Part shown: piece after piece, positions 21,001 to 30,000 of the stretch
How positions within the stretch are numbered: position 1 is the first letter of the stretch
Layout of the letters: every line of letters begins with the position of its first letter
Source of the DNA: Escherichia coli
GTDB taxonomy: Bacteria; Pseudomonadota; Gammaproteobacteria; Enterobacterales; Enterobacteriaceae
NCBI RefSeq assembly: GCF_011045215.1
Contig: NZ_CP049201.1
Direction: 5' to 3' (one strand)
DNA length: 64,000 nt
Program-made: the position numbers

Positions 21001-24000
21001 AACCTGGTGTGACCTGGGTCCGTCAGCCACCGGAAGAGGCCATTACGGATATGGCGTATTTTCCCTTCTACCGGTATGCCATGACCTTTGAAGAATTTGT
21101 TCCGGCATTTTCTTCCTGGTTTGCCGGTAACCGGTGCGGTGTGGCGATACTGACTGGTGTCCGTGCGGATGAATCCCTCAACCGCTTTATGGGACTGGTG
21201 TCTCAGCGTAAGCTCAGATATGCCGATGATAAACCCTGGACCACGGCATCACCTCAAGGGTTTTACTACACCATGTATCCATTGTATGACTGGAAAGCCC
21301 GTGATATCTGGATATATAACGCCAGAACCCGTGCCATCTACAATCCCCTGTATGACCTGATGTACCGTGCCGGTGTGCCGTTACGTAACATGCGTGTCTG
21401 TGAGCCTTTTGGCCCGGAACAACGTAAGGGGCTGTGGCTTTACCATGTTCTGGAGCCGGAAACCTGGGCCAGGATGTGTGAGCGGGTGTCAGGGGCTGCC
21501 AGTGGGGCGCGTTATGCCAATGAAAGCGGTGCCTATTTTGCCCTGCGTAAACGTATATCAAAACCGGCTCATCATACCTGGCGCAGCTATGCGATGTTCC
21601 TGCTGGATGTGATGCCGGAAAGAACGGCAGAACATTACCGTAACAAAATTGCTGTCTACCTGCGCTGGTATCAAACGCGGGGCTTCCCGGACGATATCCC
21701 GGATGAACAGGAAAATGACCTGGGCTGCCGGGATATTCCGTCCTGGCGACGTATCTGTAAGACACTCATAAAGAATGATTTCTGGTGCCGGACCCTCTCC
21801 TTCAGCCCGAACAAACCCCGGCACTATGAACGTTACCTGCAGCGTATGAAAGAAAGGAGGAAGGAATGGGGGATTCTGTGACAGCGGAGATACTGGGTAA
21901 CATGATTCGTCAGTACTTCAGCCAGGAGCGAGCAGAAGAAGAGACCATACAGGCTCTGAATCATCTGCGCAGGGTGCTGCATGAGGTCAGTCCTTTTGCA
22001 CAGGAGCCTGTGGACTGTGTGCTGTGGGTGAAAGCGGATGAGGTGGTGGCCAATGATTATAACCCCAATGTCATGGCACCGGGTGAGAAAAAACTGCTGA
22101 AACATTCACTGGAGCAGGATGGGTTCACGCAGCCTGTGGTTGTCTCGGAAGAGAAGGAGCATTATCTGGTCGTGGATGGTTTTCATCGTCAATTACTGGG
22201 CAGGGAAGCAGGTACGGGAAAACGTCTGAAGGGCTGGTTGCCAGTGACCTGTATTAATCCGGACAGAAGGGGGCAGGCCTCACGTATTGCTGCGACCATT
22301 CGACATAACCGGGCCAGGGGGAAACACCAGATAACCTCAATGTCTGATATTGTCAGAGACCTGTCACGTCTGGGCTGGACGGATGAACGCATTGGTACAG
22401 AGCTGGGGATGGACCAGGATGAAGTGCTGAGACTGAAACAGATTAGCGGGCTGACGGAACTGTTTCAGGAAGAAAATTTCAGTCAATCCTGGACTGTTAA
22501 TTAATCGTAATGTTCCGGGGACCTCATCTTTCACAGAAATATTCTGTTCATTAGCATTCCGGTATTCGTATAACTTCTTTCTGTGGAGAGTAAACAATGC
22601 CCAGGATGCGATGGACGCTTGATCAGAAAAAACATCACGTTGCCGCATGGCGCGCAAGCGGCCTTACCCGTGAACAGTACTGTGAACTTTACGACATTCC
22701 GTTTAAATCCCTGCGCCAGTGGCCGCAGGATGTCGCAAAAGCCGAAAAACGGCTCTTCCGCAACCTGGGTTGAGATTTTCATGCCAGTGGACTCATGACC
22801 CTCTGCCTGAGTAGTTCAAATCCGGCTCGACTGCAAAATGGCATCTGAATCGATCGCAGTTTGGCATTCCATACCCTTACCCACAAGTTTTCTGGGCTAT
22901 TTCTATGGCATTAATTGACAGCATTAATTGTGTTAATCCTGACCATATAGTCTTAGGGCCTGGAGGCGAATCATTTTTTCTTGCCAGATATCCTCCTAAT
23001 CTTGCAAGCATTAAAACCGCCGTTCTTATATTCGGTATGTTTTCAGGTGGAGGCGTATTCTCTACCAATATCCAGAGATACTCATATTCTTTCTTTTCGA
23101 AAATTAAATCACAGGGTTCCTCCGGAACCATTTTATACAATGAGCTAAGATAAAGTATTCTCCATGAGATTATAAGGTATAAGGCCAGACAGTTCCTTGT
23201 GCGTTCAAATGTCTCAAGTTGTAATTTCTCAACCTGACATCCGCTTTTTAATACCTTAAAGAAAACTTCAATCTGCCAGCGTAATAAATACCATTGAATA
23301 AGCTGTGCGGGTTCCGTCAGCTTTTCTGGAGGTACACTACTCATTAGCCACCATACTAATGGCTGGACACTTTCTGGAGCATTTATTTCCTTTGCAAGTA
23401 ATACAGTTACCGTTACCGGAGAACAACGTAACTTTCCTCTTCGACCGGTGGGTGGATGTAGCGTCAACCTTGCTAAGCGTAGCTCCTGCTGGACTTTGCG
23501 GGAAGGTTGTCCTCGTCCTTCCGGAAGGGTAAACTCAATTATCTGCTGTGGCAAAATCTGCATCATTTTTTCATTCAGGAGTAATGAGTCTCTTTTTCCT
23601 GATGAATTCAGTATAGCCCGGTTAATGCTCTTCATTCTTACGAGCCAGTCAGCCTTTATCCCACTTTCATTTTCTGCACTCTCAAAGAGGTCGTAAATAT
23701 CACCTTCACGGTCTGAAACAGAAATTATCTGGGTATCAGGACAGGACCTAGCCAGTTCTGTTGCTTTTTTATATCCTTCTATCCACCGTCCTGTTTCTTT
23801 CTCACTGATATGTTTCCTGTGAAGTGAATCATTAGTTATTTCTTTACGACTTTGTTTCTGAGTTTTGAGTTCTTTTCTGAACCATTGATAATCATCATAA
23901 ACCCCTAAGCAAATACCTGAATCACTTATAACCAATTGAGGGTGAATAAACAAATCTCGCTCATTTTCATGTCGTCTGGGACCGACGCCCTGTTTCTTTT

Positions 24001-27000: not shown

Positions 27001-30000
27001 TGCTCCGGCTGGCTGTGGGCTTACGTCAGCGGAGAAAGAAGCGGTCCGCCGGTCGTCTGTTTTGACTCGCAGACCGGACGGGCCCTCAGATATCCTGAGG
27101 CCTGGCTGCAGGGCTGGCGTGGTGGCACGCTGGTGAGTGACGGATACAGCGTGTACAAATCTCTGGCGGATAATGACCCCGGTATTACATCTGCCTGTTG
27201 CTGGAGCCACGCAAGACGCGGCTTCGCCAGTCTGTATAAGGCCAGCAGGGAGCCCCGTGCAGCCATGGCGCTGAGAAAAATCGCGGGTCTTTATCGCATT
27301 GAGAAGTTCATCCGTGAACGTCCTGTGGAAAAAATACGGCAATGGCGACAACGGTATTCCCGGCCGATAGTGAATGACCTGTTTGCCTGGCTTGAAGAGC
27401 AGGAGCCGTGCTGTCCGCCCGACGGACCACTAAACAAAGCGATTAATTATATCCTGAACCGGCGCGATGAACTGAGCTGCTTCCTGGGTGACGGAGCCGT
27501 GCCCCTGGACAACAATATCTGCGAGCGTGCTATCCGCCCGGTCGTTATGGGACGAAAGGCCTGGTTGTTCGCCGGTTCACTGATGGCCGGAAACCGCGCG
27601 GCACAGATAATGAGCCTTCTGGAAACGGCAAAACGTAATGGTCTGGAGCCACATGCCTGGCTGACAGACGTCCTGGCGCGTCTGCCGGAATGGCCAGAGG
27701 AGCGACTGGCAGAGTTGCTGCCCCTTGAGGGATTTACCTTCTCCGGGTGAGTGATACCTGTCGTCAGGTGTTCTTGCAGCGTGCCATAATCTGCAGTCGG
27801 GAGTTGAACGCCTGACGACAGGAAATGAGCCAGGCCAGCCACCACGCGGGCTGACAGCGAATCAGAACCTGAGTCAGCCCGGAGCCATTCCCGGGGCTGT
27901 ACTTCATCACCTGCCACCAGTACCCGTGTCAGTACTTCGCGACCTGACGCAATTACCCGACTCAGTTCTTCAGAACCCGCCTCCGATACCAGCCTGGCGC
28001 TCGCCCCTGCGCAAGCAAAATAAATCAACCATTGTCAGACTGCGATCATTCGTATGCACCGCCGATGACGCGCCCGAAAACGCGTCAATATGAGTTCGCC
28101 GGAATATTACAGTTCGCCGGAATATTACGGCTCTCTTTCCGGTCGTCAGCTTTCTGAATTCGATAAAGAAACTTGATTAACGATGATCGATTTTGTCGAT
28201 CGATTCGATCGATTTTTCTCTTTTTACCCTGTCTTTTGCATGGTTTTAAAATAAGCAACCCCGTTCATTGTTCGGGGAAAGTGATAGCGGAGATAACTGA
28301 AATGAAAAAGATTATTGCGGTTTCAGCGCTTGCTGTGGTGGGCGTATTTTCAGTCCAGGCTCTGGCAGATGAGAGCAAAACCGGTTTTTATGTGACCGGT
28401 AAGGCCGGGGCTTCTGTTGTGACTCAGACTGACCAGCGCTTTAGTCAGGACTTTGGGGATGATGTTTATAAGTATAAGGGGGGCAATAAAAACGATACCG
28501 TATTCGGTGCCGGCCTTGCGGTGGGCTATGATTTTTATCAACGTTACAACGTTCCTGTACGTACGGAACTGGAACTCTATGGCCGCGGAGCTGCGGACTC
28601 CCGCTATACACTGGATACGTGGCACTCTCCGATGGGCGATGGTGGTCGGGAAGACGCGCAGAACAGGCTCAGTGTGAATACCCTGATGGTGAACACGTAT
28701 TATGATTTCAGAAACAACAGTGCATTTACTCCATGGGTATCTGTTGGGGTGGGTTATGCACGGGTACATCATAAAGCGACATATACTGATACTTCCTGGA
28801 ATAAATCTGGTGAGGTAAGTGATATTTCTGCGTTACATTATTCGGGATATGATAACAACTTCGCATGGAGCATTGGGGCCGGTGTTCGCTATGACGTAAC
28901 CCCGGACATCGCTCTGGGCCTCAGCTATCGCTATCTGGATGCTGGTAAATCCTCCCTGTCTTACAAGGAGGCTGAAGGGGATAAATATAAATCAGAGGCT
29001 GACGTTAAAAGTCACGACATTATGTTTGGTATAACATACAGCTTCTGACAGTAATATCCACCTTTGCTAACAGTTTACAATGCTCAGGTGGATGTATTTC
29101 TTGGAATGCAGTTCATTACAAATATGTTATCCTCCAGATAGAATAGATAAGTGCTGATGATTATAATGTTCTGTGCATATCTGTATTTAAGTTAATGTAC
29201 CGTCTTTATAAGAAAAAATATGCTTGTTAAAATAATTATGCATTAAAGCTGAGTGTTTATGTGAACAAAGTTATGGATTGTCTGTAAATAATGAAAAACA
29301 AGAGCGACACAATGCAAAATATAAATATTTTTATCAGAGATAATGTCTGCAAAATTTCCAATAATCCAGACAAAAACCTTCATGTAGCCCCTGATATCCC
29401 AGATAAAAAGCTCAATAATATTGCAAAGTCAATGAATCTTCAGGATGATTACAATTATATAATCGCATTATTAGACAGTTCTCTTCTGGGTAATGGTAAA
29501 GAGGGGGTGGCATTTACAGGTGAACGCATGGTGTATAAGACTGGTCCTTTTACATCACCAAACACTATATATTTTGGCGAAATAGAAACTGTCGAATATG
29601 TCCAGAACAGAATAATTAATAATAAAGGTAAAGAAAAAATTGAAAAACATGTCTCTCTTATACTAAAAGATGGCTGTTCATATAAAATTGAAAGCATTGG
29701 TGAATGTAACCTTGAAAAATTAGCTGATTTTCTGAAGGCTATCATTGAGCAGTTTGATTCTTTCGGGAAAGATAATCAACTTATTTCGCTGTCTGAGATG
29801 TCTGAAGAGCTCAAAGTTGCATACATAAAAGTCGTAATTAATATGGTTTACTTTAATAATAGTAAACCTGGTGAGAAGTCACTGTCTGAAATACAATTGT
29901 TAATGACACGTCTGGAACTTAATTCTGAGTCCCGTTTTGTTATTCGGGAGTATTTGTTTTCAGAGAATGAAAGGGATAATCTGGAATCTCTGATACAAAC

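Follow-up and report, generated by a model that had tools for sequence, protein, structure and literature searches.

A nested insertion-sequence mosaic in a selC island of Escherichia coli and the apparent fusion of two differently guided IS1111-group elements within an IS66-family host

The closest described counterpart of the element considered here is ISEc11, a member of the IS1111 group of the IS110 family, which has a 339-aa transposase, 12-bp subterminal inverted repeats, a 7-nt extension at its left end (AATGTAA), no target duplication and a 3' non-coding region of ca. 270 bp supplying a guide RNA with two target-matching segments around a hairpin (Siddiquee et al. 2024; PMC11187229). 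All of these features recur in an element that lies, inside an IS66-family host, in a crowded mosaic of insertion sequences (IS) in a 64,000-nucleotide stretch of an Escherichia coli chromosome (contig NZ_CP049201.1, assembly GCF_011045215.1), hereafter the window. Unlike ISEc11, however, the window element is from nt ~70-198 onward an 88%-identical relative, with guide segments TCTGCTCTG and TGGGAGAAT in place of the CAGTATTTT and CGTGAAAAT of ISEc11; it is a recombinant, with guides directed at a site in IS66 tnpC and a left flank that is at odds with them. A comparable replacement of guides is described between ISEc11 and ISXne4, close relatives of this kind keeping the stems of the RNA and swapping both guide segments (PMC11187229), and seven such variants are found here in E. 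coli. The present case differs from that of ISXne4 in that two differently guided relatives entered one host element and then recombined, and no such outcome is described in the same paper (PMC11187229).

The window element also resembles the IS1111-group specialists of mobile elements, in that it is a site-specific IS that inserts into other mobile elements, and many copies of ISEc11 are annotated as interrupting tnpB of another IS66-family element (rows H157-H173). The IS1111-group elements IS4321 and IS5075 target the inverted repeats of the Tn21 family. Further specialists on mobile elements, among them ISKpn4 and ISPst6, are found in the IS1111-attC group (PMC11187229). In contrast to these, which use terminal repeats or attC sites, the elements at this locus target the coding sequence of IS66 tnpA and tnpC. 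The parts of the window that bear directly on the hybrid are the following.

24724..24890, plus strand: IS66-c, the left inverted repeat and nt 1-167 of an IS66-family element, holding copy 2 of a 170-bp repeat; left flank TTTGCATC
24891..26332, plus strand: IS1111-group (IS110-family) hybrid element, 1,442 bp, with its transposase at 25040-26059
26147..26228, plus strand: predicted seekRNA (bridge-type guide RNA) in the 3' non-coding region, placed by homology to the 3' non-coding region of ISEc11
26333..28110, plus strand: IS66 nt ~993-2773, comprising tnpC minus its first 55 codons and then the right inverted repeat; 97.3% identity to the intact reference copy, L003

The transposase of the IS1111-group element (339 aa; NF033542, E 3e-99; Pfam DEDD_Tnp_IS110, PF01548, E 6e-13, and Transposase_20, PF02371, E 7e-22) is bordered by 149 bp of 5' and 273 bp of 3' non-coding sequence, and the 12-bp subterminal inverted repeats lie at 24898-24909 (TGAACGCATCCC) and 26316-26327 (GGGATGCGTTCA). 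The element is ~88% identical to ISEc11 and to ISEc66. Its first 69 nt (24891-24959) are identical to ISEc11, and the rest is 99.9% identical to a relative of ISEc11 that is cleanly placed in the IS66 tnpC of strains 52F4 and ETEC1716, this relative, of which L001 8942-10370 is the reference copy, being 88% identical to ISEc11. At the 207 columns that distinguish the two parents, as represented by the two IS1111-group copies on plasmid pRHB06-C19_2, the window has the ISEc11 allele at the first 33 and the allele of the relative at the other 174, with one switch. This switch falls between 24959 and 25088, alleles of the relative being found from 25088 onward, and the 128 bp in question (24960-25087) is the longest stretch that is identical in both parents. 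Because there is a single change of parent, and because it lies within the longest shared identical stretch, the element is a hybrid formed by one homologous crossover between ISEc11 and its relative.

The parental arrangement is itself found in nature. The collections searched comprised 5,426 complete E. coli genomes and 72,556 plasmids (PLSDB), and in the latter a plasmid of sheep E. coli, pRHB06-C19_2 (CP057984.1; locus L012, 2505-7864), holds a single IS66 in which both IS1111-group elements are intact and in the same orientation, ISEc11 at IS66 nt ~167 and the relative at nt ~993. The ISEc11 copy of this plasmid is 99.9% identical to reference ISEc11, with junctions cccgtgaa/AATGTAA on the left and TTCATATAAC/agtactgtg on the right (the slash marking the junction), and its second element is 100% identical to the 52F4 copy of the relative. 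The same hybrid, in the same IS66 context, is present in strains mip270_05 and mip270_22 (locus L002, 3005-6391), and the right IS1111 junction is common to L001, L009, mip270_22 and pRHB06-C19_2. In mip270_22 the parental switch lies at 25089-25113 (window coordinates), one diagnostic site to the right of that in the window, a difference which could reflect either an independent event or a later mutation. The junction between the ISEc11 right end and IS66 nt 169 was found in none of the complete genomes, with a query that was off by one base and a set that does not include the precursor plasmid.

Before this recombination, ISEc11 lay at nt ~167 of IS66-c, in tnpA, and the relative at nt ~993, in tnpC; both of these RNA-guided IS1111-group elements pointed the same way, and each was at a site that fits its own seekRNA guides, ISEc11 perfectly so on the left half only. 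A single crossover within the shared 128 bp fused them. It removed the body of ISEc11, the left end of the relative and ~825 bp of IS66 (nt ~168-992), which amounts to tnpA from codon 27 onward, the whole of tnpB and codons 1-55 of tnpC. This deletion explains two features that the sequence-only reading had recorded accurately, namely that copy 2 of the repeat ends where an IS110-family element starts, which is the ISEc11 insertion point at IS66 nt 167, and that an IS66 tnpC (26245-27750; NCBIfam NF033517, E 1e-129) follows without intact tnpA or tnpB. The open reading frame (ORF) at 26245-27750 begins within the right end of the IS1111-group element, and so 29 foreign residues are fused to TnpC from residue 56 onward; the product has 501 aa as against 527 aa in native TnpC, and a Pfam comparison indicates that the LZ, zinc-finger, DDE and C-terminal domains are all kept. 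With tnpA truncated in both IS66 copies of the window and tnpB absent, the remaining IS66 is presumably non-autonomous.

The 82-nt seekRNA of ISEc11 is located in its 3' non-coding region (PMC11187229), and the 82-nt frame used for the window was set by homology rather than matched to the published ends. The guide segments of the window element, TCTGCTCTG at 26172-26180 and TGGGAGAAT at 26196-26204, fit CTGGAAG/AGCAGATG in IS66 tnpC (CTGGAAG/AGCAGA). One segment is complementary to each target strand, the match to the top strand coming first, and all seven guide variants share this layout. At the right junction, TATAG/AGCAGATG, the sequence agrees with the reverse complement of guide 1, CAGAGCAGA, and the right flank of the hybrid fits the element's own guides. 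Guide 2 agrees at eight of nine positions with CTGGAAG/AAT, which is the left junction of L001 and not that of the window. Instead, the left flank in the window, CCCGTGAA, is the ISEc11 target half, and it agrees with guide 2 at 6/9 positions as compared with 8/9 at the cognate site. The variable segments of ISEc11 itself, CAGTATTTT and CGTGAAAAT, match its published target, GTGAAAATACTG (PMC11187229). Across the seven guide variants found among ISEc11-like elements of E. coli (80-88% identical; L006, L007, L014-L021), each fits its own left and right flanks, and a consensus fold, with six compensatory pairs over the seven variants, places the guides in an internal loop around a hairpin. A change of target base on either flank abolishes circle formation by ISEc11, both flanks being needed (PMC11187229). 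Because the hybrid has an ISEc11 half on its left while its guides specify CTGGAAG/AGCAGA, it is predicted to be immobile: it belongs to the family by its sequence, but can probably no longer move. The variable left-end leader (element nt 20-69) was considered as a second guide, since the words CAGTAT and GTGAAA in ISEc11 looked target-like, and was dropped after alignment of 13 copies representing the seven guide variants, in which it behaves as ordinary divergent sequence that does not track the target. An Rfam scan of 22400-28300 at E <= 1 gave no match, and hence no curated bridge or seekRNA family.

The other prominent feature of the region, the 170-bp repeat, has its origin in the same host family. 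The sequence-only reading placed two near-identical copies at 22505..22674 and 24722..24890, coordinates that prove right to within 1-2 nt: on direct comparison, 22504-22674 (171 nt) and 24721-24890 (170 nt) differ solely by one extra T in copy 1 (CATCTTTCAC, as against CATCTTCAC in copy 2), and a repeat finder returns two blocks at 100% identity, 22530-22674 = 24746-24890 (145 nt) and 22504-22530 = 24721-24747 (27 nt), which are shifted by one base relative to each other. A match of 170 bp is far above chance expectation for 64 kb. In a megablast search of 22000-28200 against the complete genomes, the repeat is recognised as the left end of a common IS66-family element, and both copies open exactly at the IS66 terminal inverted repeat GTAATGTTCCGGGG, at 22507 and 24724. 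The start of a short ORF, which both copies had been said to share, is indeed present in each and is the tnpA ATG (22597 and 24813). The first of the two copies belongs to the following piece.

22507..22751, plus strand: IS66-a, the left inverted repeat and nt 1-245 of an IS66-family element, holding copy 1 of the 170-bp repeat; 97.6% identity to L003 nt 1-244

The intact copy used as the IS66 reference (L003 1508-4280, 2,773 bp) sits in a prophage terminase gene, has the termini GTAATGTTCCGGGG... and ...CCGGAATATTAC with the 8-bp target duplication GTTATATC on both sides, and carries tnpA at nt 90-419, tnpB at 406-786 and tnpC at 829-2412 (ORFs of 330, 381 and 1,584 bp), its TnpC comprising LZ, zf-IS66, DDE_Tnp_IS66 and C-terminal domains. 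The terminal inverted repeats of ~20 bp starting GTAA are likewise found in the window, the left one as GTAATGTTCCGGGGACCTCAT at 22507 and 24724 and the right one, as its reverse complement, as GTAATATTCCGGCGAACTCAT, ending at 28110. Copy 1 extends to IS66 nt 245 and copy 2 to nt 167, and the window holds in total two IS66 left ends and one right end. Unlike the reference, IS66-a is a 245-bp stump with 52 of 109 tnpA codons native, and IS66-c, with 26 native tnpA codons left, is without nt ~168-992 and holds a foreign element. Nor is there a matching 8-bp target duplication at the IS66 pieces in the window (left flanks AATTAATC and TTTGCATC, right flanks AGTTCGCC and GGCTCTCT), which fits with later rearrangement and is no argument against membership of IS66; neither copy is complete, and the family assignment is clear.

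The single-base difference between the copies is also informative. The TTT of copy 1 recurs in C5 plasmid A and pCeylon31IncF, in the IS66 stump that these plasmids have at the same ibrB junction, and the TT of copy 2 is common to the IS66 copies in mip270_22, pRHB06-C19_2 and L003; in fact, all 167 nt of IS66-c are the same as in the IS66 copies of mip270_22 and pRHB06-C19_2. On this comparison the extra T is a lineage marker, separating two IS66 lineages. Because each copy has its start at an IS66 terminal inverted repeat, and because the one-base difference tracks separate lineages, the repeat represents two IS66 left ends and not 170 bp duplicated in place.

Three other explanations of the arrangement have to be weighed. 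That it is an assembly artefact or the product of a mixed population, in which most cells have one IS66 left end and the second copy with its 2.2-kb insert is mis-joined or in a minority, is improbable: the complete arrangement is unique in the collections searched and 170-bp direct repeats can recombine, but each copy has unique sequence on both sides, and the individual junctions are present in other finished assemblies, ibrB/IS66 in L004 and L005, IS21::IS4 in 52F4 and C5, and both IS66 nt 167/ISEc11 left end and IS1111 right end/IS66 nt 993 in mip270_22 and pRHB06-C19_2, while the usual assembly error collapses repeats rather than expanding them. Formation of the hybrid by the IS1111 transposase, through RNA-guided recombination of an IS end with a pseudo-target in tnpA instead of host homologous recombination, has in its favour that the left flank CCCGTGAA followed by AAT fits the ISEc11 guide CGTGAAAAT at 9/9 positions, and IS110-family recombinases are reported to be programmable for deletions (PMC11208160). 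This route is nonetheless very improbable, as the switch lies 69-197 nt inside the element, in the longest parent-identical stretch and away from the termini and core cut by the transposase, as a precursor with two complete elements exists, and as the left 69 nt are ISEc11 sequence, which is more than an ISEc11-type flank. A local segmental duplication of 170 bp, by replication slippage or unequal crossing-over and with the insertions following afterwards, is hardly credible, for although the copies have the same orientation, lie 2.2 kb apart and differ by one base, both begin exactly at an IS66 terminal inverted repeat and have different left flanks, their shared stretch ends at the ISEc11 insertion point of copy 2 whereas copy 1 stays IS66 for 78 nt further, the one-base difference is found in separate lineages of other genomes, and C5 plasmid A and pCeylon31IncF, at the same locus, have copy 1 but lack copy 2.

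The preferred reading, of two IS66 left ends of separate lineages and one homologous fusion inside the second, can be extended to the region as a whole, which is very probably an IS graveyard in a chromosomal selC island, which grew through nested insertions, was later cut back as repeated IS copies recombined, and has no function of its own. It is a pile-up of six broken mobile elements, the product of ordinary IS decay, and to this extent the description of it as a mosaic of serially inserted and truncated elements was sound. The order along the map is the ibrB-like stop codon, IS66-a, the ISL3 tip, the IS21 left end split by IS4, IS66-c, the IS1111-group hybrid, IS66 nt ~993-2773 and an 18-bp IS66 end. 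The pieces that remain to be introduced are these.

21866..22504, plus strand: ibrB-like gene (ParB N-terminal domain), left border of the mosaic; IbrB-like domain annotation in 99.8%-identical plasmids
22751..22831, minus strand: ISL3-family end, 81 bp with inverted repeat GGCTCTTCCGCAACCTGGG; 92.6% identity to an ISL3 end in Nissle 1917 (L010)
22832..22869, plus strand: IS21-family (ISSso4-like) left end, nt 1-38, beginning TGCAAAATGG; 100% identity to nt 1-39 of the uninterrupted IS21 copy L011 3001-5640
22870..24359, minus strand: IS4-family element, complete, 1,490 bp; boundaries set against uninterrupted IS21
24360..24723, plus strand: IS21 continued, nt 78-442, with the first 70 istA codons from 24515; 97.8% identity to L011 3078-3442
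28111..28128, plus strand: the final 18 bp of the IS66 right inverted repeat, AGTTCGCCGGAATATTAC, repeated in tandem, by direct reading (the pair spans 28093-28128)

IS66-a lies 2 nt past the ibrB-like stop, and an ISL3 element has cut its tnpA at nt 245. The IS21 left end, already carrying IS4, adjoins the ISL3 fragment 81 bp from the ISL3 tip, and the second IS66, IS66-c, adjoins IS21 nt 442 at its own left inverted repeat. We infer how IS66-c came to abut IS21, and the source of the 18-bp tip; the latter is probably the remnant of an earlier IS66, entered 18 bp from its end by another IS66 and mostly lost later. The nesting would thus have run from IS66-a through ISL3 and IS21::IS4 to IS66-c before one deletion, in which the far parts of IS21, ISL3 and IS66-a may have been lost together. 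The likeliest route for this deletion would be recombination of IS66-c with a downstream IS66 in the same orientation, which would explain the lack of matching 8-bp target duplications, and nesting followed by deletion would be the most economical reading of the whole. The suggestion in the sequence-only reading of a possible duplication or recombination event is borne out in its second part only, the demonstrable recombination having taken place between two IS1111-group elements within IS66 and not between the 170-bp copies. Recombination of the two direct repeats, with loss of the intervening 2.2 kb, could still occur.

Several observations weigh against this account. No matching 8-bp target duplication is found at any IS66 piece, and for this reason the order of events at the outer junctions is not provable. 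Four junctions, IS66-a/ISL3, ISL3/IS21, IS21/IS66-c and the right end with its 18-bp tip, have no counterpart in the collections searched, and the downstream IS66 partner that a single deletion predicts is not seen. On sequence alone, an assembly error at the 170-bp repeat is possible. As regards the fusion, ISEc11 at the tnpA site is found only in four near-identical plasmids of one study (H255-H258, of which H255 was mapped); its guide match at that site in pRHB06-C19_2 is perfect for the left half only, the right half fitting the ISEc11 guide poorly (CAGTACTG vs AATACTG).

Candidates for ancestral states were also considered. Strain 52F4, with the order IS4-IS21-lptA fragment-IS66::IS1111, is rejected as a direct ancestor, its IS66 left repeat having a 5-bp deletion and its right end being truncated, and pRHB10-C19_2 does not represent the ancestral ibrB-IS66 state, its IS66 lying beyond a perC-like gene at a different site. 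As a probe for the empty site, the left and right 1.5-kb flanks were joined, and they are adjacent in no genome searched.

At the left border, the ibrB-like stop codon lies 2 nt ahead of the IS66-a left end, and the ibrB/IS66 junction, with flank AATTAATC, is present in C5 plasmid A (L004) and pCeylon31IncF (L005) as well as in the window. These two plasmids share 99.5% identity with the window over the 10 kb upstream. In both (in C5 plasmid A at L004 13503-16240), an inverted IS66 copy breaks into IS66-a at nt ~150. The tnpA-side end of this copy, at its nt 225, is fused to the ISL3 tip at a 10-bp imperfect similarity. Their state fits with insertion followed by deletion at a short similarity (CGGCTTTTGC / GGCTCTTCCGC), and the deletion looks like the resolution of a long inverted repeat; it is the window that retains the older state of the IS66-a/ISL3 junction.

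The DNA between the two repeat copies is not an IS4 element alone. The earlier statement that an IS4-family element with imperfect inverted repeats follows copy 1 is correct as to the element, but an ISL3 tip and an IS21 left end also intervene, and the picture of a 170-bp duplication bracketing IS4 as a unit does not stand, both copies being IS66 left ends and the DNA between them an ISL3 tip plus IS21 carrying IS4. The ISL3 terminus (22751-22831), the position of IS4 inside the IS21 left end, the hybrid nature of the IS110-family element and the 18-bp tandem tip (28111-28128) had not been recognised in that reading.

The ISL3 fragment has an inverted repeat (GGCTCTTC) like that of its family (GGCTCTT), with GGCTCTTCCGCAACCTGGG present at both ends of the Nissle 1917 ISL3 copy. 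As this repeat follows directly on IS66-a nt 245, ISL3 must have inserted into IS66-a tnpA and cut it there; nt 22751 is assignable to either element. Copy 1 does not, as had been supposed, run on into the rest of its ORF, since the 58-codon ORF consists of 52 native tnpA codons (of 109) followed by six codons and a stop from the ISL3 inverted repeat. In C5 plasmid A the ISL3 fragment measures 142 bp; no ISL3 transposase sequence is left in the window. Like other members of its family, the IS21 piece has an end starting TG and repeated TTGGCAT motifs at the left, and intact copies carry istA and istB, istA being intact in L001. In contrast to complete elements, IS21 and ISL3 are represented in the window by stumps only, of 402 bp and 81 bp, respectively. 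IS21 is cut at nt 442, exactly where the IS66-c left repeat begins, and the rest of it, istB included, is absent from the window.

The IS4-family element agrees with its family in having a DDE transposase (22877-24292, minus strand; NCBIfam NF033590, transpos_IS4_3, E 1e-103) with a Tn5-type DNA-binding and dimerisation domain (Pfam Tnp_DNA_bind, DDE_Tnp_1 and Dimer_Tnp_Tn5; PF01609, PF14706, PF02281), as well as 18-bp imperfect inverted repeats, CATACCCTTACCCACAAG and CATATCCTTACCCATAAA, at 22870 and 24359, which agree at 15/18 positions. The insertion site of IS4 is within the left end of IS21, of which 38 bp (nt 39-76) are gone there. No clean target duplication of 9-12 bp was found for it, the flanks TTGGCATTC and TTGGCATCA agreeing at seven of nine positions, and target duplications were looked for and not found around every IS66, IS4 and IS21 piece. 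The IS21::IS4 junctions of the window recur in the 52F4 and C5 chromosomes, and the IS4 element is full length in only two of the 5,426 complete genomes, C5 and 52F4, at the same IS21 left-end position in both; to judge from its distribution, this IS4 element seems to move only when carried by IS21. In 52F4 the IS21::IS4 unit is apparently flanked by a 6-bp repeat, ATGCTG, at the one locus read, and it may have moved as a unit. No further fragments of IS21, ISL3, IS66 or IS4 are found elsewhere in the window.

The right part of the window IS66 is itself a mosaic. The sequence at 26633-27730 is nearly identical to the inverted IS66 of C5 plasmid A, and for the final 400 bp mip270_22 is the closest; this composition shows frequent exchange of sequence among the IS66 copies here. 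Within 26474-26626 (153 bp, in the zinc-finger region of tnpC) there are 21 substitutions specific to the window, found in none of seven comparator IS66 copies and keeping the reading frame, and this segment has the appearance of a patch acquired by gene conversion from an IS66 that is less closely related.

As to the wider surroundings, the tRNA-SeC gene (37418-37512, minus strand) adjoins a P4-type integrase gene (35929-37119, minus strand), and the sequence to its left is therefore a chromosomal island inserted at selC. The 10 kb to the left of the mosaic (12324-22656) are 99.5% identical to two bovine E. coli plasmids. Immediately upstream of the mosaic lies an ibrA-like (PAPS-reductase fold) and ibrB-like gene pair (20631-22504), the ibrA-like protein giving only weak BrxP and DndC matches in PADLOC. 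Directly past the IS66 right end, 28299-29048 is an outer-membrane beta-barrel gene ~90% identical to tia, which encodes the invasion protein Tia of enterotoxigenic E. coli (ETEC). It is followed by two adjacent ORFs (29291-32478; 562 and 499 aa) that match the PADLOC models for BnzA (E 3e-188) and BnzB (E 3e-200), the Bunzi anti-phage defence pair, and have no Pfam or NCBIfam match. When 28111-32500 (4.4 kb) was compared with the complete genomes, only the tia-like part was matched, with a best coverage of 20%, the BnzA/BnzB DNA being unmatched at megablast sensitivity.

For annotation, the region is best recorded as six IS fragments rather than as a duplication, with 170-bp direct repeats that delimit a 2.2-kb segment losable by recombination. 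Some interest attaches only to the documented joining, in a shared IS66, of two IS1111-group elements with different guides: a natural fusion of two seekRNA-guided ISs within one host, for which precursor and product are both in public sequence, although the wider point is modest. The locus adds a relative of ISEc11 with guides to IS66 tnpC to the known natural examples of guide re-direction, and the natural mismatch between guide and flank in the hybrid could be used for testing the reported requirement of both flanks for excision. It is possible, if rather doubtful, that IS1111-group elements act more generally as parasites of IS66, differently guided relatives homing to tnpA, tnpB or tnpC, and that two of them in one IS66 recombine, removing the transposition genes of the host and leaving a locked hybrid with flanks unlike its guides. 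The different switch points in the window and in mip270_22 mean that the fusion may have recurred and, if this is true, it would constitute a recurrent route to the inactivation of IS66.

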